Origin: Candidatus Terrybacteria bacterium RIFCSPHIGHO2_01_FULL_48_17
GTDB taxonomy: Bacteria; Patescibacteriota; Minisyncoccia; Terrybacterales; 2-01-FULL-58-14
Length of the DNA: 64,000 nucleotides
Assembly: GCA_001822835.1 (NCBI GenBank)
Contig: MHSS01000002.1
Coordinates: 1,060 to 65,059 of the forward strand
Reading direction: 5' to 3'
Shown here: piece after piece, positions 50,872 to 60,371 of the stretch
Numbering within the stretch: the stretch's first letter is position 1
Layout of the letters: the number at the start of each line of letters is the position of its first letter
The notes under the pieces: generated by a model
What the model was told of the DNA's origin: nothing
The model's input: only the letters and a program-made list of their open reading frames with translations
Database searches by the model: none
Program-made: the position numbers and the translations under genes

Positions 50872-50951
50872 AAATTAGGGAACAGGGTTCAGGGAATAGG
50901 GAACAGGCAAAACCTGATACCCGATTTCTGATACCTGATAGCAAATTTATG

Positions 50952-51321
50952 TGGAGATGGTGGGAGTTGAACCCACGTCAAAAGAATGCGCCGGGGCCTG
51001 TGTACGAGCGTAGTCCATCTTGTGTTTCTTTGGCAATTACGGTAGGAGACGGACAGAATCTATAATTGCCGCAGCTCAAATATTTCGCGCAAGCAATTGG
51101 GTAGGTGCTTGGCTAGCTCGATTATAACACCCTAAACCCCCTATCGAGCATCGGGGCAGGATGGCCTACATGCCAATTAGGCGTAGGCGTATGAGGGGCG
51201 CAAAGACCCCTTTGTCAATAAGTTTGCACTTATTTGGTTGGCTACAAAGATTAACGAGGAAGGCAGCCATCCTCGGCTCGCAAGCAACCCTTTGTATTCC
51301 TTTTCAAGGCCCGGCATCCCC
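50952..51321 (-). ncRNA. ssrA: tmRNA (SsrA)
   Basis: Minus-strand 5' GGGGAUG pairs with 3' CAUCUCC (a G3:U Ala identity pair). 3' T-arm gtggg-UUCAACU-cccac and discriminator A. Candidate tag ORF ...ANLLTKGSLRPSYAYA* with UAA. Located right downstream of smpB. Confidence 0.7.
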
Positions 51322-51385: not shown

Positions 51386-51826
51386 CTACATTTTCAAATG
51401 CCGTTTTATTTCCCTCTCGGATTCTCTTTTCTTGATAACCTCTCGCTTATCCATTTTCTTTCGGTGTTTTGCAATTCCAATTTCAACCTTGATTTTACCC
51501 CGCACACTATACAGGCGCAAGGGTATGGCAGTCAAGTGCCTCTGGGCAAGTTTTCCGACAAGCCACGAGAGCTCTTTTTTCTGCACGAGTACTTTGCGCG
51601 ACCGCGTGTCGTTATAGTCGGGAGGGGCGTTTTTTGGCTGCCACGCAGGAATCGTGGCGTTGGTCAAAAACGCTTCTCCTGCTTTTAGGGTAACAAATGC
51701 TCCGGCAAGCGAGGCGCGTCCTGCGCGAATGCTTTTTACTTCCTGGCCAGAGAGCACCAAACCGCCTTGCAGTGTTTCAAGGATTTCGTAGTCAAAGCGT
51801 GCGCGTTTGTTGTCAGCAAAACTCAT
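51386..51826 (-). CDS. smpB: SsrA-binding protein SmpB
   Basis: 146 aa from MSFADNKRARFDYEILETLQGGLVLSGQEVKSIR (compare E. coli NKRARHEYFI..GLALQGWEVKSLR). Confidence 0.85.
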   Translation of the reverse strand: MSFADNKRARFDYEILETLQGGLVLSGQEVKSIRAGRASLAGAFVTLKAGEAFLTNATIPAWQPKNAPPDYNDTRSRKVLVQKKELSWLVGKLAQRHLTAIPLRLYSVRGKIKVEIGIAKHRKKMDKREVIKKRESEREIKRHLKM

Positions 51827-51993
51827 AGAAGCGGATCTGCGCGCCTGCCTGCCGGCAGGCAGGGACATCAACACTGATCTGCGCCGATGTTTTCAGCGTA
51901 GCACGACGGTTGTAAAAACAAGAATCGTATGCTAGAAAGGTTTTGCCTGCGCCACAGGTAGTTCCTATCAAACAAACAAAAAGGAGGAACGAG

Positions 51994-52574: not shown

Positions 52575-54260
52575 ATGCTGCGCTCTTTTGTTGAAGGCCC
52601 AGGCGGGCTTTTGGAACAAGCGCTCGCCCGGGCGTTTAAAAAACTGAAGCTCCCATTAGGGGGGGCGATTTTTGAGCGTCCGGAAAACCCAAAACATGGC
52701 GATTATGCAACGAGTGCTGCTTTGCGGCTTGCGAAGAAGGAAAAACGTCCGCAAATGGAGATTGCAAAAGGGCTTACGGATGAATTATTGCGTGATGCCC
52801 GTATTGCGCAGATGATTCAAAAAGCCGAAACAATACCTCCTGGTTTTATCAATATATTTCTGTCTCCTAAGTGGCTTCAGGCACAAATTCCCGGCATTAT
52901 CTCGTCCGGAGAAAACTACGGGAAAACCTTGCACTCGTCTTTTAGCGATAAACATTCCAAGGTGCAGGTTGAGTTTATTTCGGCAAACCCGACGGGTCCC
53001 TTGACGCTCGCCAACGGAAGAGGAGGATTTTTGGGAGATGTGCTTGCAAATATCCTTGAAGCCGCAGGCAATAATGTTACGCGCGAATATTATGTGAACG
53101 ATGCGGGGGAACAGGTGCGAAAGCTTGGCTGGTCCATCCTTGCGGCAAAGGGATACAAGACACCCTACCAAGCAGAGGAGCTTTATCAAGGCAGTTATAT
53201 TCGTGAGTTGGCGGAGAAGATAATGTCGCAAGAAATCCAAAATCCAAAATCCAAAATCCAAAACAAACCTCAAATCCAAACTTCGAAACTCGCGGAATAC
53301 GCGGCGAGGGAAGGGTCTAAGCTCTTGCTTAAAGACATCAAGCGCGTGGTGCGAAAGGCCGGGATTAGATTCGACGTATGGTTTTCGGAAAAAAGTTTAC
53401 ATCGCCAACGAATTGTCGACGAAGTGCTGAAGATAGTGAAACGAAAACGGCTCGTTGAAGAAAGAGAGGGCGCATTGTGGTTGCGCGCGCAAGAGCTTGG
53501 CGAATCCAAAGACAAGGTGCTGGTGAAGTCATCGGGCGACCCCACCTACCTTTTACCTGACCTTGCTTATCATTGGGAGAAGTTTATGCGTCGCAGATTT
53601 TCCAGCGTTATCGATATTGTGGGTGCAGACCATCATGGTCACATGCGGGCGTTGAGCGTAGGACTTAAAGTGCTTGGTCTGAAACAGCCATCCGTTATTT
53701 TGGTGCAATTTGTGCGACTTGTAGAAAATGGACAGGAAGTCAAGATGTCCAAGCGCGCAGGGACGTTTGTGACACTCGAGGAATTGCTCAATTCGGTTGG
53801 AAAGGATGTTGCGCGCTTTTTCTTTCTGCAGTCGTCGCCGACAAGCCACATGGACTTTGATCTTGCGCTTGCGCGCGAGCAATCGCAGAAAAACCCAGTG
53901 TATTATACGCAATATGCTCACGCGAGAATCGCAAGCATGTTGCGTAAATCCAAAATCCCAAATCCTAAATTCAAAACCGATTATACGCTGCTGCAGCATC
54001 CAAGCGAGATCGTTTTAATGAAACAAATCGTGCAGCTTCCTGATCTTGTGGGGCGTATTGCAAAAAACCATGAAGTGCATCATTTGACGACCTATAGCCG
54101 GGAACTTGCAACTGCTTTTCATGCATTTTACCGCGACTGCCGCGTCATCTCGGAAAACAAAGGAACAACCGCAGCGCGCCTTGCACTATGCCGTGCCACG
54201 CAAATAACACTTGCCAACACCCTTCGTTTTATGGGCATTCGGGCGCCGGAAAAAATGTAG
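52575..54260 (+). CDS. argS: Arginyl-tRNA synthetase
   Basis: 561 aa. Class I motif region FISANPTGPL (HIGH degenerate), KMSKRAG, and a DALR anticodon-binding C-terminus. Two in-frame AAATCCA-type repeat insertions (QNPKSKIQNKPQIQ; KSKIPNPKFK). Confidence 0.9.
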   Translation: MLRSFVEGPGGLLEQALARAFKKLKLPLGGAIFERPENPKHGDYATSAALRLAKKEKRPQMEIAKGLTDELLRDARIAQMIQKAETIPPGFINIFLSPKWLQAQIPGIISSGENYGKTLHSSFSDKHSKVQVEFISANPTGPLTLANGRGGFLGDVLANILEAAGNNVTREYYVNDAGEQVRKLGWSILAAKGYKTPYQAEELYQGSYIRELAEKIMSQEIQNPKSKIQNKPQIQTSKLAEYAAREGSKLLLKDIKRVVRKAGIRFDVWFSEKSLHRQRIVDEVLKIVKRKRLVEEREGALWLRAQELGESKDKVLVKSSGDPTYLLPDLAYHWEKFMRRRFSSVIDIVGADHHGHMRALSVGLKVLGLKQPSVILVQFVRLVENGQEVKMSKRAGTFVTLEELLNSVGKDVARFFFLQSSPTSHMDFDLALAREQSQKNPVYYTQYAHARIASMLRKSKIPNPKFKTDYTLLQHPSEIVLMKQIVQLPDLVGRIAKNHEVHHLTTYSRELATAFHAFYRDCRVISENKGTTAARLALCRATQITLANTLRFMGIRAPEKM

Positions 54261-54283
54261 TAGCATTATTTTAAGTAAAGGCT

Positions 54284-57200
54284 ATGGATTTTTCGAAAAG
54301 CGAAGAAAAAATACTTAAAAGTTGGGAAAAGGGGAAAACCTTTAATGCTTCCCTTAAGGCAAGGGCCAAAGCTCCGCGTTTTATATTTTTTGAAGGACCG
54401 CCAACTGCCAATGGACGGCCGGGTATTCACCATTTATTGGGGCGCGCTTTCAAGGATGTTGTGTGCCGGTATAAAACTATGCGGGGCTTTTTGGTTGAAC
54501 GTCGGGCAGGATGGGATACGCATGGCCTTCCCGTTGAATTGGAAGTGGAAAGAGAGCTTGGGCTGAAGGCCAAGCAGGATATCGAGCAATATGGCATCGC
54601 CCGTTTTAATGCCCGCTGCAAAAAAAGCGTTTGGAAATATAAAGATGAATGGGAGAAATTTACCAGGCGTATCGGTTTCTGGATTGATCTTAATGACCCG
54701 TATATCACCTATACCAATGGCTATATTGAAACGCTTTGGTGGATCATCAAAAATATCTACGACCAAGGACTTTTGTATGAGGATTTTAAAGTAGTGCCAT
54801 GGTGTCCGCGGTGCGGATCGACGTTATCTTCTCACGAAGTGGCGTTGGGATATGAGTCGGTTTCCGAAAATTCCTTGTACGTAAAATTTAAAGTAAAAGG
54901 CGAAGCAAATACGTATATTTTGGGATGGACCACAACCCCTTGGACTTTGCCGGGTAATGTTGCGTTGGCAGTGGGCAGCGACACCGATTATGTAAAAGTA
55001 GAATTTTCGGGCATGGATGGGATTTATATTCTTGCAAAAGATAGCGTTGGACGGATAAGCCGTGCCCTGCAGCTAACTGGTGAGGTTTCTGGATCGGTAC
55101 TAAAAGGGCATGAGCTTGTCGGTTTTGCATATGAGCCGCTGTTTGATATTCCCGAAACACAAAACGAAAAAAGCCATAAAGTGTACGCAGCTGATTTTGT
55201 AAATACCGACGAGGGAACAGGTATTGTGCATACCGCCGCGATGTACGGGGAAGACGACTATCGGCTTGGTGTGCGCGTGGGTTTGCCAAAAGTTCACACC
55301 GTTGATGAGGAAGGAAGATTTCTGCCAAATGTTCCAGCGGGTCTTGCCGGTCGGCAGGTTAAAGCAAAAGATACCGAACAAGACATTCTTGCACATCTTA
55401 TAAAACGCAATCTTTTGTTTAAGGAGGAGCAATATACGCATGACTATCCTTTTTGTTGGCGCTGCAAAAGCGCATTGCTTTATTACGCCAAAAGGTCATG
55501 GTTTATTAAAATGTCGCAGCTGCGCGCGAAACTTATTTCAGAAAACGAACGGGTTAATTGGATACCCGAGCATCTTAAGTCCGGAAGGTTTGGCGAATGG
55601 CTTCGTGAGCTTAAGGATTGGGCGTTTTCGCGCGAACGCTATTGGGGAACCCCCTTACCTATTTGGCGATGCGTGGAATGCGGCGAAACCGAAGCAGTCG
55701 GTTCGCTGAAAGAATTGGGAGCTCGCAGCAAGATGAGGAACCGCTATATTTTATTGCGTCACGCCGAAGCGAAGTCCAATGTCGAAAGCTGGGTGTCATG
55801 TATGCCCGAAAAAAAGAGAAGCCCTCTTACTAAAAAGGGAAGGGCACAGGCGAGACAGGCGGCAGATAGTTTAAAAAAATATAAACCAGACGTAATCGTA
55901 AGTTCGCCGCTTGAGCGCACAAACGAAACTGCGGCAATCGTTGGGAATTTGCTTGATCTGCCCGTGATCATAGAAAGCAGGATTCAGGAATTTAAGCTTG
56001 GCACATTTAATACCCGCCCCGTCGATGAATACCACAAGTTTTTGGGGTATAAGCCCGAGGCCCATTGGGATAAAAAACCGCTTGGAGGTGAAACGTGGAA
56101 AGAATTGCGCAAGCGCATGCTTGTTGCAGTAAAGGATCTTGAGAAGAAATACGAAGGGAAAACGATTGTTTTAGTAAGTCATGGAGATCCGCTTTTTGTT
56201 TTGCAGGGAGCGCTTCTTGGGATAGACGAAAATGATTTTGCGGTTTCGTATCGGCACGCATATCCCAAATATCAATCACAAGCAAAGGGAAGGCGTATAC
56301 CATATCCGGAAACAGGAAAGCCGTTGGTATTGCCAAATTATGCATTGCCGCTTGATGAGTCGGGTCGGCCCGATTTGCACCGTCCTTTTGTGGACGAGCT
56401 TACTTTTTCTTGTAAAAAATGCAAGGGCTTTATGCGACGCGTACCAGAGGTCATTGATGTCTGGTTCGATTCCGGCGCCATGCCGTTCGCTTCGCAGACC
56501 GACGCGGATTTGGCCCGGCAAGTTGCGGGGCAGGCGCGGACAGACGCGGGAAATGTTCAGCGTGGGTCAGCGTCCAGTCAGCGTAAGTCAGCGTTTCTCT
56601 ATCCGGCAGACTTTATTTGTGAGGGCATTGATCAGACGCGCGGATGGTTTTACACCTTACTTGCAGTGGCGACACTGTTGGGCCGAGAACGACCATATAG
56701 AAACGTAATTTCACATGGGCATGTCCTTGATAAAAACGGGAAAAAAATGTCCAAATCCCTGGGTAATATGGTAAGTCCATGGGACATGGTTGAACGATAT
56801 GGCGCCGATGCGGTGCGATGGTATTTTTACACCATTAATCAGCCAAGCGATCCGAAACGTTTTGATGAACAAGACGTGAAACGGGTGCAGCAGCGTTTTA
56901 TTGGAACGCTATACAACCTTCTTGCTTTTTGGCATACCTATTCGCGCACAAAAAAGGGTACAGGGTACAGGGTACAGGGTACGGGGTTGACGGTTTTAGA
57001 CAGGTGGATTCTTTCCCGCATAAACACCGTAATCGAACGGGTTTGCCAGTATATGGATGCATACGACTTGGTTAACGCCGCACGGCTTCTTGATACGTTT
57101 GCGGTTGACGATTTGTCTAACTGGTATGTGCGCCGTTCGCGTGAACGTTTCCAGCACCCCAAGAATCGCAGTGAACGTGTTTATGCCGAGGCGTTATTAA

Positions 57201-57862
57201 CACATCTGCTCGAAACGCTTGCGCAAATGATTGCTCCATTTACGCCCTTCGTAGCAGAAGAGATTTTCCATAACGTTTCCGACGGGGCAAGCGTTCATGT
57301 GACCGATTTCCCAAAAACGGAAAAGAAATTGCAATTTATGGAGCTTGAGGCCGATATGGAAAAAATACGAGAGGCAGCAGCGCTTGGGCATGCCGAACGC
57401 AGGAAGGCGAATATCCGAGTACGCCAACCGCTTGCGTCATTAAGCATTGCGCAAGACCTTGTCCCGAAGTCACCGGCAAAAAACGAACTTTTTTCAATTC
57501 TTGCTGACGAACTAAATGTGAAAGAAATAAAAGCGGGGGATGGCCTTCCTGCGCATTCCGTAGTGTTGGATACCGAGCTTACGCCGGCCCTACGCGCCGA
57601 AGGCGTGAGGCGTGAAGTGATACGTATTTTGCAGGACTTGCGGAAAGAGGCGGGGCTTAAACCCAAAGACCGTGTGCGTATGCGCCTTTCGCTTTCTGGC
57701 ACTTTCCACGATGCATTTCATGGACACTACAAGGAACTTGAGAGGGCAGTGGGCGCGCGAGAAGTTTTGTTCGGCAGTAGGGACGAGCGAATAAAAGTGC
57801 GGGCGGAACGCTCCGTGCGGATTGATGATTCGGTTGAGGTGTGGGCAGCAATTATAAAATAG
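54284..57862 (+). CDS. ileS: Isoleucyl-tRNA synthetase (type 2) with an inserted SixA-like histidine phosphatase domain
   Basis: 1192 aa. HIGH (PPTANGRPGIHH), CP1 editing (TTTPWTLPGNVALAV), EGIDQTRGWF, KMSKSLGN. Between the zinc knuckles WRCVECG and FSCKKCKG lies an ~210-aa domain with the SixA motifs LRHAEA, LTKKGRAQARQAA, VSSPLERTNETAA and LVSHGDP. Confidence 0.9.
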   Translation: MDFSKSEEKILKSWEKGKTFNASLKARAKAPRFIFFEGPPTANGRPGIHHLLGRAFKDVVCRYKTMRGFLVERRAGWDTHGLPVELEVERELGLKAKQDIEQYGIARFNARCKKSVWKYKDEWEKFTRRIGFWIDLNDPYITYTNGYIETLWWIIKNIYDQGLLYEDFKVVPWCPRCGSTLSSHEVALGYESVSENSLYVKFKVKGEANTYILGWTTTPWTLPGNVALAVGSDTDYVKVEFSGMDGIYILAKDSVGRISRALQLTGEVSGSVLKGHELVGFAYEPLFDIPETQNEKSHKVYAADFVNTDEGTGIVHTAAMYGEDDYRLGVRVGLPKVHTVDEEGRFLPNVPAGLAGRQVKAKDTEQDILAHLIKRNLLFKEEQYTHDYPFCWRCKSALLYYAKRSWFIKMSQLRAKLISENERVNWIPEHLKSGRFGEWLRELKDWAFSRERYWGTPLPIWRCVECGETEAVGSLKELGARSKMRNRYILLRHAEAKSNVESWVSCMPEKKRSPLTKKGRAQARQAADSLKKYKPDVIVSSPLERTNETAAIVGNLLDLPVIIESRIQEFKLGTFNTRPVDEYHKFLGYKPEAHWDKKPLGGETWKELRKRMLVAVKDLEKKYEGKTIVLVSHGDPLFVLQGALLGIDENDFAVSYRHAYPKYQSQAKGRRIPYPETGKPLVLPNYALPLDESGRPDLHRPFVDELTFSCKKCKGFMRRVPEVIDVWFDSGAMPFASQTDADLARQVAGQARTDAGNVQRGSASSQRKSAFLYPADFICEGIDQTRGWFYTLLAVATLLGRERPYRNVISHGHVLDKNGKKMSKSLGNMVSPWDMVERYGADAVRWYFYTINQPSDPKRFDEQDVKRVQQRFIGTLYNLLAFWHTYSRTKKGTGYRVQGTGLTVLDRWILSRINTVIERVCQYMDAYDLVNAARLLDTFAVDDLSNWYVRRSRERFQHPKNRSERVYAEALLTHLLETLAQMIAPFTPFVAEEIFHNVSDGASVHVTDFPKTEKKLQFMELEADMEKIREAAALGHAERRKANIRVRQPLASLSIAQDLVPKSPAKNELFSILADELNVKEIKAGDGLPAHSVVLDTELTPALRAEGVRREVIRILQDLRKEAGLKPKDRVRMRLSLSGTFHDAFHGHYKELERAVGAREVLFGSRDERIKVRAERSVRIDDSVEVWAAIIK

Positions 57863-57958: not shown

Positions 57959-58525
57959 ATGCGGGCATTAATTCTTCAAACTGAATCAGTAGGCGAGGCG
58001 GATTGGGAGATAACCATGCTTTCCGAGGAGCTTGGTAAGCTGCGCGTCAAGGCCAAAGGCGCTGCCAAAATGGAGTCGAAATTGCGTGCCGGCATTTTGC
58101 CATTTGTTACGAGCGATGTTATGTTGCATCCCCAAAAGAACGGGGGTTTTCTTTTAAAAACCGCTGCACCGTACGTAGAACGTCTATCAATACGAGAATC
58201 GCTTTGTGCGCTTTCGGTGGCAGAGGTCTTTGCCGAGATTCTTTTAGCAATAACCGGGGAGGGGATTGTGGACGAAAAGCTGTTTTTATTTGCGGAAAAG
58301 GCATTTGATGCGCTCGAAGAAGGCAAGGATCCCGTAACGGTGTTTCTCTATGCCGTCTCTGCATTTATTCGGGAAGCAGGTCTTGCGCCTCCCAAAAACG
58401 CTCATGACCTTCCTTTATTTATGCAAGAACACTTCGAGTACCCGCTTGGCAGCTTTTCTTTTATGCAAAAGGCGTGTCATGAGGTAAAATATAGGAGCGA
58501 TGCCCAAGAGACGGTATTTATATGA
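57959..58525 (+). CDS. recO: DNA repair protein RecO
   Basis: 188 aa with an N-terminal OB-fold pattern (ALILQTESVGEADWEITMLSEELGKLRVKAKGA). The C-terminus is shorter than E. coli RecO. Confidence 0.6.
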   Translation: MRALILQTESVGEADWEITMLSEELGKLRVKAKGAAKMESKLRAGILPFVTSDVMLHPQKNGGFLLKTAAPYVERLSIRESLCALSVAEVFAEILLAITGEGIVDEKLFLFAEKAFDALEEGKDPVTVFLYAVSAFIREAGLAPPKNAHDLPLFMQEHFEYPLGSFSFMQKACHEVKYRSDAQETVFI

Positions 58526-59121
58526 ATGCCCCCACTAAAGAATTTATTGCCTTATTAAGCGCAACCACCATTGCCTTGGCAGCTGCCATAATTATGGAAG
58601 ACGCGCAGCCAAAAGCTGCTACGCCGGTGGTTGGGCAACTAGCGCAAGAAAGCGCGACACCGCCGCAAGAGGACGAATTTGCCGGCTGGCAAACCTACCG
58701 CAATGAAGAGTATGGGTTTGAGGTGAGGTATCCAGGAGAATGGATTGTTGCTAATGAAGTATGCCCCGATTATTCTTCTGACGATCTTATCATTTTGGGC
58801 AATAGGGGTAATGATTGTTTTGCTTATGGAAGCTTAGAAGGTTCTTACGAATTTGCAATATCTATTAATGAACAAGAACATGATCTAAACGAAATGATTA
58901 AGGGTAGAGAAGGATTTGTACCTACTGGGGAATTTATTTCCCTTTCTGGGGTTAGGACGGCAAAAGTCTATCCAATTTACACGGCTTTTTATGGGAGAAT
59001 TGAGATGTATCTAAATCATAGATCTAATGGGTTTATGATTGTATTTCCAAACATAGATTACCAAGGAAATTATGATTCAATGTATAACCAAATCCTCTCT
59101 ACGTTCCGGTTTATTGAATAG
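58522..59121 (+). CDS. signal-anchored secreted protein, paralog A
   Basis: 199 aa. N-terminal TM/signal LLSATTIALAAAIIMEDAQPK is nucleotide-identical over ~60 nt to the start of the 59727 gene. Confidence 0.55.
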   Translation: MNAPTKEFIALLSATTIALAAAIIMEDAQPKAATPVVGQLAQESATPPQEDEFAGWQTYRNEEYGFEVRYPGEWIVANEVCPDYSSDDLIILGNRGNDCFAYGSLEGSYEFAISINEQEHDLNEMIKGREGFVPTGEFISLSGVRTAKVYPIYTAFYGRIEMYLNHRSNGFMIVFPNIDYQGNYDSMYNQILSTFRFIE

Positions 59122-59427: not shown

Positions 59428-59673
59428 ATGAGATTTTATTTCACCGCACATTTTGCGGCGCGATACCGCAGGTTGAGCCCGCGCGCCAAAACCCAGACCG
59501 ACAAGGCCCTGGGGTTTCTTTTACGCGATCTTCGGCATCCTTCGCTTCACGCAAAGAAATACGATGAGACGCGCGGCATATGGCAGGTGCGAGTAACGAA
59601 AACATACCGCCTCTATTTTCTTATTGAAGGAGAAGCGTATGTCTTGCTTGATGTGAAAACGCATCCGAAGTGA
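59428..59673 (+). CDS. RelE/ParE-family type II toxin
   Basis: 81 aa. LHAKKYDETRGIWQVRVTKTYRLYFLIEGEAYVLLDVKTHPK fits the RelE/ParE core. Confidence 0.7.
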   Translation: MRFYFTAHFAARYRRLSPRAKTQTDKALGFLLRDLRHPSLHAKKYDETRGIWQVRVTKTYRLYFLIEGEAYVLLDVKTHPK

Positions 59674-59726
59674 TAATGCCACACGGCCCGATGTATCGTA
59701 TTGGGCAATTTTGGTACAATAAGAAC

Positions 59727-60371
59727 ATGGAACCCTCCCTCTCAAAGCACCTTTTCATATTATTGGCCGCAACCACCATTGCCTTGGCAGCTGCCATAAT
59801 TATGGAAGACGCGCAGCCAAAGCCGGCGACGCCAGCGTTCTCGCCAGCGCAGCAAACTCAACTATCGCAGCAGGGAAACGAATTAGAACAGGCGTTACCA
59901 CAAAGTGACGATATCTATTCATGTGATTTTTGGAAGGATAAGATTTTTGCTACCACTGATTTTGGTGCTTCAGCGGGCATGGTCGATCTCCGTGGTATCG
60001 TACACAGCGTCCAAACGACGATATGGGATGAGAACGTAACGCGTGTCTATTTTGAAATCAGCCCTCCACAAGAAGAGTCAGCGCGGACTTTTTATCAATA
60101 TTTCTTGGATATGATACGGGAAGGAAATAGCGTTAATACACAAGAAAGCGATGTCTTACAATTTACATTAGGCGTTCTGGAAAACGAAAAAATTGAATCA
60201 TCGGCATACATTTCTGATGCTACGCAATATCGATTGCAAACGGCGCTCGCCTACGCCCTTCCTGTTTCATTACGATTTGTTGTTCCCCTTTATCTTGGCG
60301 CAGGGGCTCCCACAGATTTCAGTTTCGCCTGCAGTATTGAATATCGTATAGTCGATACCCCTATTCCTTGA
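59727..60371 (+). CDS. signal-anchored secreted protein, paralog B
   Basis: 214 aa from MEPSLSKHLF, with the same anchor as paralog A (LLAATTIALAAAIIMEDAQPK) and an unrelated C-terminal domain. An alternative ATG at 59670 overlaps the toxin stop. Confidence 0.5.
   Translation: MEPSLSKHLFILLAATTIALAAAIIMEDAQPKPATPAFSPAQQTQLSQQGNELEQALPQSDDIYSCDFWKDKIFATTDFGASAGMVDLRGIVHSVQTTIWDENVTRVYFEISPPQEESARTFYQYFLDMIREGNSVNTQESDVLQFTLGVLENEKIESSAYISDATQYRLQTALAYALPVSLRFVVPLYLGAGAPTDFSFACSIEYRIVDTPIP

Follow-up and report, generated by a model that had tools for sequence, protein, structure and literature searches.

Why should an aminoacyl-tRNA synthetase (aaRS) carry a phosphatase in the middle of its catalytic domain? 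The question is raised by a locus of Candidatus Terrybacteria bacterium RIFCSPHIGHO2_01_FULL_48_17, where a first-pass annotation of a 64,000-nucleotide stretch (hereafter the window) had recognized an isoleucyl-tRNA synthetase (IleRS) with an embedded histidine phosphatase. Few enzymes have been studied as intensively as the aminoacyl-tRNA synthetases, and new biology has come to light time and again from their accessory domains for editing, tRNA binding, and signalling. We know of no aminoacylation step that needs a phosphomonoesterase. What the evidence makes probable is that the domain represents a partner phosphatase dedicated to IleRS, in its fused form, inside the housekeeping IleRS of a patescibacterial (Parcubacteria/Paceibacteria-type) organism.

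The host gene, ileS (54284–57862; this and all other features discussed here lie on the forward strand), is a single open reading frame of 1192 amino acids that encodes a type-2 IleRS. The protein reaches 868.9 bits with the TIGR00392 ileS model (cutoff 621.4) in two matching stretches either side of the insert, which also interrupts the match to the Pfam family tRNA-synt_1 (E 3.8e-113); Anticodon_1 and DUF5915 are matched as well. Its closest solved relative is IleRS2 of P. megaterium (8c8w; E 1e-250), and the IleRS2 structures 8c8w and 1ile are the best solved matches, with the IleRS1 structures 8c9f and 1ffy attaining only E 1e-96 to 1e-93. Membership in IleRS2 is evident from its position closest to the IleRS2/MupA/MupB clade and from a C-terminus that consists of DUF5915 (ARD2-ARD3) without a C-terminal Zn-binding domain; the scores for MupA (778 bits) and MupB (768 bits) are under the exception cutoffs, as expected.

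The CP1 editing domain (aa 188–389, matched by the structures 1wk8 and 1wny), the EGIDQTRGWF motif, and the KMSKS loop (aa 821–825; 56744–56758; KMSKS in 50/50 homologs) are intact and in frame in this one protein, as had been claimed, and both Zn knuckles (C174/C177/C391/C394 and C463/C466/C710/C713) are present. By contrast, the class-I signature described as an intact HIGH motif actually reads as a swapped, non-canonical G-I-H-H (aa 47–50; 54422–54433), and GxHH is present in 49 of 50 homologs. The GXHH signature of IleRS2 is functional and tied to mupirocin hyper-resistance (Brkic et al., PMC10485003). When compared with the free or inserted state of the phosphatase, the HxGH and GxHH signatures gave a mixed pattern in a search whose pattern missed many sequences. 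No second ileS is located within the 64-kb window, and homology suggests that the reading frame encodes the housekeeping, isoleucine-specific enzyme that charges tRNA-Ile. A disordered, low-complexity loop between DVWFDSG and EGIDQTRGWF (aa 737–772; 56492–56599; pLDDT 30–37) is lineage-specific, with 4% identity to homologs. The same position, termed site A-prime, holds a second phosphatase domain in two other IleRSs (P0292 and P0308).

The inserted domain spans aa 481–696 (55724–56371; edges from the alignment with 8c8w) and thus falls inside the interval 55700–56420 in which it had been reported. A connection of 10 residues in 8c8w (476 to 487) corresponds to aa 480 to 697 of the window protein, which gives an insert of ~206–216 aa. 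The phosphatase is looped out from the tip of the second Zn-knuckle hairpin in CP2, immediately ahead of the point at which the polypeptide returns to the catalytic core. It separates the first half of the knuckle, C463-V-E-C466 in WRCVECG (55670–55681; C463 in 50/50 and C466 in 44/50 homologs), from the second half, C710-K-K-C713 in FSCKKCKG (56411–56422; C710 in 50/50 and C713 in 49/50). Because the HUP core of PmIleRS2 resumes at residue 513, the Zn hairpin belongs to the connective-peptide region.

There is ample evidence that the insert is a complete branch-1 histidine phosphatase, as the first-pass annotation had proposed with correct residue numbers. It matches His_Phos_1 (PF00300) at aa 489–652 (55748–56239) with E 3.4e-35 and 121.9 bits (cutoff 21.7; profile positions 2–166 of 194), and the excised insert alone reaches 125.8 bits against the same cutoff. 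Besides the profile score, the domain has the alpha/beta/alpha fold and the catalytic core of branch 1 (RH, second Arg, second His, acid donor). The catalytic R492-H493 (55757–55762), which aligns with the RHG-type motif and here reads R-H-A, is invariant in 50/50 homologs, with H493 as the predicted phospho-acceptor; the position of A494 is occupied by G in 41/50. Equally invariant (50/50 each) are R545 (55916–55918), E603 in G602-E603 (56087–56092), and H633 (56180–56182; SHG at aa 632–634), and E569 (55988–55990) is E in 45 and D in 5 of 50 homologs. Across 297 aligned domain copies, R-H is retained in all except seven whose sequence does not contain the N-terminal motif; the catalytic set is kept in nearly all. 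At the same time, the insert diverges faster than the IleRS core (39% vs 54–61% all-pairs identity). Invariant catalytic residues in an otherwise diverged domain are a signature of selection on catalysis, and judging from its intact active site, the domain is apparently an active phosphatase. AlphaFold2 models are in agreement with autonomous folding of the insert, with pLDDT values of 92–97 inside the full-length model and 95.5 when modelled alone (pTM 0.92). The model of the whole protein (mean pLDDT 88.7) has a pTM of 0.84, which implies a defined placement of the phosphatase domain.

The assignment to the SixA (phosphohistidine-phosphatase) type did not hold. The motifs quoted as marks of SixA are generic to branch-1 histidine phosphatases, and the SixA model TIGR00249 yields a partial match that covers ~65 N-terminal residues (aa 26–94 of the excised insert) with 25.9 bits and E 7e-6, far below its cutoff of 74.5. 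Eleven other phosphatase and mutase models score higher; models of PspA, CobC, PhoE, and dPGM_arch all match better, and SixA structures are absent from the top 50 Foldseek matches to the domain model. SixA (1ujc) shares the superfamily and the N-terminal RH nucleophile motif with the window domain but represents a minimal core that lacks the two specificity insertions and acts on a phosphoprotein (PMC12051542). The window domain, with ~200 aa, possesses both insertion regions (aa 494–513 and a two-helix cap at aa 570–602), and such elaborations beyond the SixA core are thought to set substrate specificity (PMC12051542).

The nearest relatives by both sequence and structure are PspA, PhoE, GpgP, CobC, and the HFP of the riboflavin pathway. 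PspA (4ij5/4ij6), GpgP, PhoE, and CobC are the best Foldseek matches (probability 1.00), and superposition of the domain model on 4ij5/4ij6, 6s2q, and 1h2e gave TM scores of 0.64–0.72 and an rmsd of 2.3–2.8 Å. None of the NCBIfam equivalog cutoffs is reached, be it that of dPGM_arch (NF038349; 104.6–108.4 bits, cutoff 225), PspA (NF045917; 70–74 bits, cutoff 350), CobC (TIGR03162; 69–73 bits, cutoff 162.9), GpmB, or SixA, and other phosphoglycerate mutase models, such as TIGR01258 (24.7 bits, cutoff 81.7) and PRK14115, are not matched above their cutoffs either; homology therefore transfers no specific activity to the domain. The substrate motif of dPGM-type enzymes is E-R-H-Y-G; the corresponding position reads E-F-K-L-G in the window domain and E-x-N-x-G in the consensus. 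Profile scores and the structural model both predict a capped phosphomonoesterase of the small-molecule type, similar to PhoE, PspA, and CobC.

The association of IleRS and phosphatase is not unique to the window but phylum-wide in Patescibacteria. PF00300 is present, as the same insert, in all of the best 120 full-length homologs (1120–1250 aa), which stem from many patescibacterial lineages and are 46–72% identical to the window protein except for one near-duplicate cluster at 99% (P0121). The insert length is confined to 206–223 aa across homologs, and the same junctions recur in hundreds of them. A GTDB scan with an alignment of insert plus flanks (A3) detected the insert in at least 29 species genomes; the same database gave no match when a single free phosphatase (P0014) was the query. 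In both the metagenome and the GTDB scans, matches were ranked by similarity, so that proportions among them are not a census. The CP2 hairpin is only one of at least three insertion sites in IleRS, the others being the loop that leads from DVWFDSG to DQTRGWF and a position after KMSKS, and some IleRSs hold two to four phosphatase copies. These copies are just 23–48% identical to each other, yet each complete one retains the catalytic set apart from two single substitutions. All multi-domain matches scanned in the census were IleRSs (PF00133 with or without Anticodon_1/DUF5915), with no other aaRS among them. The statement that no aaRS with such a phosphatase had been described stands as far as the literature found is concerned: no description of an IleRS with this phosphatase was encountered, and a survey of 96,219 IleRS architectures does not mention it.

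In sister lineages, the phosphatase is encoded by a separate gene (~190 aa) right upstream of an insert-less ileS. A linkage scan seeded solely on the phosphatase motif recovered at least 80 metagenome loci. Among the 80 matches listed, the domain is located inside ileS at 31. At 41 of the 46 testable loci with a free phosphatase gene, one or more such genes immediately precede, in the same orientation, an ileS that lacks the insert; ileS is further downstream at two, three are unlinked, and another three are untestable. The gap between the free gene and ileS among these matches ranges from −10 to +22 nt, with an overlap in 21 of the 41 loci, and two tandem phosphatase genes precede ileS at two loci. 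In genomes with the free state, the order argS, His_Phos, ileS, recO is seen as well in independent gene predictions for assembled contigs that are also available from NCBI. The window has the same block minus the free phosphatase gene. It starts with the arginyl-tRNA synthetase gene argS (52575–54260; Pfam Arg_tRNA_synt_N, tRNA-synt_1d, DALR_1), continues with ileS after a gap of 23 nt (54261–54283), which is the slot filled by the free phosphatase in the sister lineages, and ends with a recO-like gene (57959–58525; RecO_N) in the position that it also holds in free-state genomes.

An upstream phosphatase gene is absent from all 51 insert-less control IleRS loci, 50 of which are from outside Patescibacteria. 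The occurrence of fused, upstream-free, multi-site, and multi-copy forms, together with the absence from the control loci, identifies the phosphatase as a candidate dedicated partner of IleRS. The partnership is not obligatory everywhere: insert and nearby phosphatase gene are both missing from at least one patescibacterial genome (L061), and three of the 46 free genes lie apart from ileS. The neighbourhoods of these unlinked genes (L122, L123, and L137) include an AlwI restriction-modification pair, an HI0933-like flavoprotein, a PD-(D/E)XK nuclease, an M23 peptidase, and a nucleotidyl transferase, and offer no functional hint. In a crude neighbour-joining tree of IleRS based on p-distances, 55 of 56 nearest neighbours share the free or inserted state, with ~4 changes, and the distances of phosphatase and IleRS are correlated (Pearson 0.44; Mantel p ~0.001). 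The clustering of the two states on the IleRS tree suggests that phosphatase and IleRS are co-inherited.

We infer from these patterns that phosphatase and IleRS are physically and functionally coupled. A conserved neighbourhood in the operon and fusion speak for a common function or a common assembly, which is less than proof of an action on an IleRS ligand. In the proposed arrangement, IleRS would charge tRNA-Ile as usual by means of its intact GIHH, editing, EGIDQTRGWF, and KMSKS motifs, and the phosphatase would hydrolyse a phosphomonoester via a phospho-His493 intermediate, with R492, R545, and H633 holding the phosphate and E569 acting as acid/base. Fusion, or translational coupling in lineages with a free gene, would provide a phosphatase:IleRS ratio of 1:1 or higher and would keep the phosphatase beside that half of the catalytic domain in which the motifs for binding of amino acid and ATP are located. 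What the substrate is can only be a matter of speculation; it would be a small phosphomonoester, probably nucleotide- or acid-sugar-like and connected with the IleRS reaction, rather than a phosphoprotein. AMP, as an example of a reaction product, is one candidate, and a phosphorylated compound that binds to or inhibits the synthetic site is another. Of the two functions originally envisaged, action on a phosphorylated nucleotide fits the family relationships better than a coupling of charging to a phosphorylation signal.

A dedicated partner must be weighed against the possibility that a phosphomonoesterase of general metabolism (phosphoserine phosphatase, broad PhoE-like phosphatase, or short dPGM), functionally unrelated to IleRS, merely resided in an ancestral argS-ileS operon and later became fused neutrally. 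The closest characterised relatives are indeed metabolic (PspA 4ij5, PhoE 1h2e, GpgP, dPGM_arch), the block also contains the unrelated genes recO and argS, and Patescibacteria have small genomes in which fusions and odd operons are common. However, a neutral passenger should hardly be found at three or more independent internal sites or in two to four apparently active copies, insertion within a hairpin of the catalytic domain carries a cost that only selection for the product would offset, and the start/stop coupling to ileS persists across IleRS cores that are only ~46–60% identical. Since the domain also misses the specific equivalog cutoffs and has E-F-K-L-G in place of the dPGM motif, such a hitch-hiking origin is distinctly improbable. 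An artefact or a dead domain (a chimera, an intein-like element, or an inactive structural spacer) is scarcely conceivable, even though the source is a metagenome-assembled genome and the insert evolves faster than the core. Eleven contigs encode the identical protein, and they stem from four assemblies that are independent of each other (NCBI GCA_001822935.1, two from ENA, and JGI 3300002502) and were produced by different assemblers, which excludes a chimera, and the composition of the insert (GC 0.460, GC3 0.451) resembles that of the N-terminal core of ileS (0.460 and 0.440); with a GC3 equal to that of its host gene, the insert is no recent import. Also an intein or other mobile element can be dismissed, because the phosphatase fold explains the entire insert and splicing and endonuclease motifs are absent; the invariance of the catalytic residues amid divergence argues against a mere spacer.

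Alternatively, the substrate may be macromolecular, either tRNA or the synthetase itself. In the first case, tRNA ends that are damaged, immature, or modified by a toxin might lose a 2'/3'- or 5'-phosphate ahead of aminoacylation; in the second, the phosphatase might reverse a phosphorylation of IleRS, for example one by a HipA/HipT-like kinase at a serine of the KMSKS loop. Protein phosphatases (SixA, PGAM5, Sts) occur in the superfamily, and KMSKS-loop serines of GltX and TrpS are targets of kinase toxins. Moreover, the three insertion sites flank active-site motifs in the second half of the catalytic core (WGTPLP, DVWFDSG, EGIDQTRGWF, KMSKS), stoichiometric tethering suits a substrate that is bound to IleRS, and the RNase H/acid phosphatase family PRK07238, a precedent on a nucleic-acid enzyme, is among the best NCBIfam matches of both inserted and free forms (74–97 bits, below its cutoff of 326). 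The basic character of the domain (pI ~9) is also compatible with RNA binding, but the IleRS core is about equally basic, so that charge does not discriminate in favour of an RNA substrate. A capped small-molecule architecture in place of the open, minimal SixA core, the restriction to IleRS among the multi-domain matches scanned when repair of tRNA ends should serve all tRNAs, and the absence of a kinase from the conserved block make a macromolecular substrate unlikely. A phosphohistidine phosphatase of the SixA type that links IleRS to a His-Asp phosphorelay is highly improbable: the RH...H catalytic core that it has in common with the domain is shared by the entire superfamily, the N-terminal TIGR00249 match is weak, the minimal core of SixA comprises ~155–160 aa, and genes for histidine kinases or HPt proteins are absent from the block.

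Relatives and parallels of the fused enzyme exist among both phosphatases and synthetases. PhoE, PspA (iPSP1), GpgP, CobC, and HFP (1h2e, 4ij5, 4qih, 6e4b, and 9mmh) share with the window domain the fold, the RH...R...E...H residues, a size of ~200 aa, and the two insertions, at 25–30% sequence identity (E 6e-14 to 1e-5) and with Foldseek E values of ~1e-14 to 1e-11 (TM ~0.65–0.72). They are separate proteins of metabolism whose small substrates are known, whereas the window domain is embedded in IleRS or its free relatives are coupled to ileS. The IleRS2 enzymes of P. megaterium (8c8u–8c8w) and T. thermophilus (1ile) are collinear with the window protein over the full length and share its Zn knuckles, editing domain, KMSKS, and ARD/DUF5915, and its GXHH signature is that of the hyper-resistant IleRS2 subclass (Brkic et al.). 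They differ at the hairpin tip, where the 10 residues of 8c8w (476–487) are replaced by an enzyme domain of 216 aa, and in the extra disordered loop of the window protein. An annotated IleRS family with a second enzyme domain exists in NF040702 (ileS_w_GNAT), for which no paper was found, but there the partner is a GNAT; the window protein, with 314 bits (cutoff 1999) and no GNAT match in Pfam, is not a member. Members of PRK07238 (Rv2228c type) likewise combine a CobC/PhoE-like phosphatase with a nucleic-acid-processing enzyme, although by C-terminal, end-to-end fusion and with another partner, in contrast to the internal insertion in IleRS. Helper modules of aaRSs that are fused or free depending on lineage are known from the trans-editing factors AlaX, YbaK/ProX, and ThrRS-ed. 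The window phosphatase follows the same evolutionary pattern, but these factors hydrolyse aminoacyl esters for proofreading, whereas the window domain is a predicted phosphomonoesterase.

To the extent of the literature found, the partnership of IleRS and histidine phosphatase is undescribed. Its recognition corrects the annotation of the fused proteins, which are often named just 'class I tRNA ligase family protein' at NCBI, and of the free genes, which tend to appear there as 'PhoE' or 'histidine phosphatase family protein'. It also provides a natural pair of fused and split forms for tests of protein-protein docking and demonstrates that the tip of the CP2 Zn hairpin of IleRS tolerates a 200-aa domain. 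The combination of operon coupling, multi-site internal fusion, and copy multiplication, by which a very large and little understood radiation of bacteria keeps a phosphatase with its IleRS, implies selection for some function. Tentatively, and with less than even confidence, we envisage a step of isoleucyl-tRNA synthesis that was added in Patescibacteria and is known from no other organism, in which the dedicated phosphatase, either free or in one to four built-in copies, acts on a phospho-ligand bound to IleRS. A nucleotide product or a phosphorylated inhibitor might serve as this ligand, and so might the end of tRNA-Ile or the active-site loop of the enzyme itself. If so, phosphate removal would be coupled to the charging, proofreading, or protection of IleRS and would constitute a new accessory activity of aaRSs. 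Once identified, the substrate could point to a new step of quality control or regulation in translation, to protection from a toxin or antibiotic directed at IleRS in organisms that already carry the GXHH motif of mupirocin hyper-resistance, or to a metabolic shortcut specific to ultra-small symbionts.

The single 1192-aa ileS ORF of the window (54284..57862, + strand) encodes an isoleucyl-tRNA synthetase (IleRS) in which the tRNA-synt_1 match (E 3.8e-113) is split in two by a His_Phos_1 domain (PF00300; aa 489-652; E 3.4e-35). The latter match, anticipated by the first-pass annotation, scores 121.9 bits, far above the Pfam cutoff of 21.7. Anticodon_1 and DUF5915 were also detected, and the NCBIfam equivalog TIGR00392 (ileS), whose cutoff is 621.4 bits, matches in two parts, one on either side of the insert, with 868.9 bits. 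The residue numbers of the first-pass annotation are correct (CVEC, aa 463-466; CKKC, 710-713; RH, 492-493; SHG, 632-634), and its view that an insert of ~210 residues separates two zinc-knuckle halves agrees with the alignment to the nearest IleRS of known structure, 8c8w (P. megaterium IleRS2; E 1e-250). The alignment is collinear to residue 476 and resumes at residue 487, with a gap in the window protein from aa 480 to 697; hence, where the reference has a hairpin tip of 10 residues, the window protein has ~206-216 (nt 55724-56371), flanked by all four cysteines of the zinc knuckle. The limits of the catalytic (HUP) core of PmIleRS2 (residues 40-168 and 513-632; PMC10485003) assign this hairpin to the connective-peptide (CP2) region, just ahead of the re-entry of the chain into the core at DVWFDSG. 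The class-I signature, previously described as an intact HIGH motif, is indeed present, but in the swapped, non-canonical form G-I-H-H instead of HxGH (window 54422-54433, aa 47-50). GxHH occurs in 49 of 50 homologs; the motif has been shown experimentally to confer mupirocin hyper-resistance on IleRS2 (Brkic et al., PMC10485003).

The possibility that the fusion is an assembly artefact, which the first-pass annotation had raised, can be rejected, because four independent assemblies (NCBI MAG GCA_001822935.1, two ENA assemblies, and JGI 3300002502) encode the identical 1192-aa protein, on 11 contigs in all, and the GC/GC3 of the insert (0.460/0.451) matches that of the N-terminal core of ileS (0.460/0.440). 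In an AlphaFold2 prediction of the whole protein, based on 50 homologs (mean pLDDT 88.7, pTM 0.84), the insert is predicted to fold with high confidence (pLDDT 92-97 over aa 480-650), as it is when the phosphatase domain is modelled alone (pLDDT 95.5, pTM 0.92). The only disordered part of the model (aa 740-769; pLDDT 30-37) belongs to a GC-rich, low-complexity loop (…DADLARQVAGQARTDAGNVQRGSASSQRKS…; window 56492-56599, aa 737-772) between DVWFDSG and DQTRGWF, which is lineage-specific and unconserved (4% identity to homologs); some homologs (P0292, P0308) carry a second phosphatase domain at this position.

The first-pass annotation had classified the insert as a SixA-type phosphatase. This label does not hold: the SixA model (TIGR00249) has a cutoff of 74.5 bits but matches with just 25.9, limited to the N-terminal third. 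SixA has been described as the core of the superfamily in minimal form, to which HFP and iPSP1-type enzymes add two insertions that are thought to set substrate specificity (PMC12051542); both are present in the window domain. The best-scoring models likewise remain below their own cutoffs, namely dPGM_arch (104-108 bits), the bifunctional RNase H/acid phosphatase PRK07238 (74-78 bits), PspA (70-74 bits), and CobC (69-73 bits). The top sequence relative among solved structures is the phosphoserine phosphatase of H. thermophilus (4ij5; E 5.6e-14); B. stearothermophilus PhoE, mycobacterial GpgP, and CobC are further close relatives, and a Foldseek search with the domain model recovered the same enzymes together with the Aquifex riboflavin-pathway phosphatase HFP (TM 0.64-0.72). 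The sub-cutoff SixA score, the nearest relatives, and the two insertions together predict a capped, small-molecule-type branch-1 phosphomonoesterase that can be assigned to no characterised specificity.

Among 50 full-length homologs, the catalytic residues R492, H493, R545, E603, and H633 are invariant, and position 569 is occupied by E (45) or D (5); the RH motif and the catalytic histidine thus align as originally proposed. All-pairs identity is 39% for the phosphatase domain, 54-61% for the IleRS core, and 36% for the C-terminal domain. The phosphatase domain therefore diverges faster than the synthetase, its catalytic residues remaining unchanged and its length confined to 206-223 aa; its active site is under selection.

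The fused form is clade-wide. PF00300 is located inside IleRS in all of the best 120 full-length database matches (1120-1250 aa), which are 46-72% identical except for one 99% near-duplicate cluster (P0121). Their source names include Terry-, Jorgensen-, Wildermuth-, Brenner-, Azam-, Lipton-, Yanofsky-, Sung-, Portnoy-, and Nealsonbacteria and Paceibacterota, and they are annotated merely as ‘class I tRNA ligase family protein’ or ‘isoleucine--tRNA ligase’. At least 29 GTDB species genomes carry the insert, including four of Peribacteria/Peregrinibacteria (L035-L038) whose IleRS of 1447-1486 aa contain two tandem phosphatase domains. Relative to the IleRS landmarks, the domain occupies three or more distinct sites: between WGTPLP and DVWFDSG (site A, that of the window, with a tandem duplicate in some homologs), between DVWFDSG and EGIDQTRGWF (site A-prime, where the window protein has its disordered loop), and after KMSKS but before the anticodon-binding domain (site B). 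Among the large IleRS of 1419-1486 aa (L035-L038, P0263, P0249, P0299, and P0308), two-domain layouts are either tandem at site A or combine A or A-prime with B; P0263 even has four domains. Copies within one protein are just 23-48% identical, but each complete copy keeps the catalytic set, barring changes in copy 3 of P0263 (N-to-A) and copy 1 of P0292 (E603Q/R611Q).

The same phosphatase also occurs as a separate gene. The free proteins most similar to the insert (38-40% identity), P0014 and P0015, have 203-204 aa, and their genes lie 74-119 nt upstream of a true ileS that lacks the insert (TIGR00392, 871 bits in a single continuous match). A total of 1.84 billion cluster representatives were searched exhaustively, and 14 complete free proteins from this search were aligned. 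The free family is large, with 1,241 proteins at E <= 1e-10 among scored candidates; it is likewise derived from Patescibacteria and annotated as ‘histidine phosphatase family protein’ or ‘PhoE’. JGI metagenome contigs were scanned with a seed pattern confined to the phosphatase, and the loci were sorted with local HMMs. Among the 80 loci in the matches listed, the domain is inside ileS in 31, whereas 41 have one or more free phosphatase genes directly upstream of an insert-less ileS on the same strand (gap of -10 to +22 nt; 21 overlap). In two loci, ileS is located farther downstream (309 and 1381 nt); in three, the contig end is too near to judge; and in the remaining three (L122, L123, and L137), ileS is not nearby. 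An AlwI-type restriction-modification pair adjoins the free gene in L122. In two loci (L133, 4983-9028; L158, 4983-9153), two free genes in tandem directly precede an insert-less ileS, an unfused equivalent of the double-domain fusions. By contrast, an upstream phosphatase gene is absent from all 51 insert-less IleRS2 loci among the listed matches of the GTDB scan, 50 of which are from other phyla. In Patescibacteria group bacterium STA_36 (L061), ileS has neither an insert nor a nearby phosphatase gene. In Urinicoccus massiliensis (Firmicutes), ileS is followed at a distance of 60 nt by an ORF of 184 aa (L063, 6840-7391) that the phosphatase HMM matches; this is the sole adjacency outside Patescibacteria among the matches listed and may be coincidental.

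Independent gene calls around three free phosphatase genes gave the order smpB(-) | argS -> His_Phos -> ileS -> small ORF -> recO -> ~550-aa protein -> class-II aaRS. The window shows the order smpB(-) | argS -> ileS -> recO -> ... -> 566-aa protein -> class-II aaRS, with just 23 nt between argS and ileS and the phosphatase inside the latter. Since the block matches except for the free gene, the embedded domain functionally takes the position of the free gene in the operon and is its orthologous replacement. A crude neighbor-joining tree based on the N-terminal core of IleRS groups its 56 tips by state, free or inserted (55 of 56 nearest neighbors agree in state; minimum of four changes), and the correlation of pairwise distances between phosphatase and IleRS (Pearson 0.44; Mantel p about 0.001) indicates long co-inheritance. 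The upstream edge of the block is formed by smpB and an adjoining tmRNA gene (tag ANLLTKGSLRPSYAYA; window 50951-51321 and 51386-51874, both on the - strand). The otherwise conserved block is broken by an ORF of 81 aa (59428-59673, +) that weakly matches a ParE-like toxin (22.5 bits, just under the cutoff of 24.4). Two ORFs (58522-59121 and 59670-60371, both +) share a near-identical N-terminal hydrophobic segment (…ATTIALAAAIIMEDAQPK[A/P]ATP…) and little else, and may encode paralogous secreted or membrane-anchored proteins.

The insert is apparently an active phosphomonoesterase, real, conserved, and structurally autonomous as judged from sequence and model. Its tie to IleRS is evident from translationally coupled gene order, fusion at multiple sites, and multiplication of copies, and is limited to Patescibacteria among the loci compared. 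Proteins that interact or share a function classically show conserved adjacency and fusion, and the combination of both suggests that phosphatase and IleRS work together physically. A metabolic enzyme that merely hitch-hikes with ileS is improbable, because a neutral passenger would hardly enter an essential catalytic domain repeatedly and at several sites while keeping an intact active site. If the two activities are coupled, the cap and the enzymes most closely related to the domain favor a small phosphomonoester as substrate, which, speculatively, could be AMP, a product of IleRS, or else a phosphorylated compound that binds the synthetic site; this is plausible but tentative. A macromolecular substrate, either a tRNA end or phospho-IleRS, would be consistent with the position of all three insertion sites beside motifs of the active site, but carries less weight and seems rather unlikely, though slightly less so than mere hitch-hiking.

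Synthetases with appended or inserted modules are a known theme, and modules such as AlaX and YbaK likewise alternate between fused and free forms from lineage to lineage. NCBIfam includes a model of IleRS bearing a GNAT domain, a module other than a phosphatase. The combination of IleRS and His_Phos is already precomputed among the Pfam architectures in public databases, but the full-text literature searched, which covers few subscription journals, yielded no description of a histidine phosphatase as a module of any synthetase, and a 2026 survey of the domain architectures of 96,219 IleRS sequences mentions neither phosphatase nor Patescibacteria; as far as this literature goes, the module is undescribed in IleRS. 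The existence of the association between IleRS and the phosphatase is robust and would surprise specialists in aminoacyl-tRNA synthetases.
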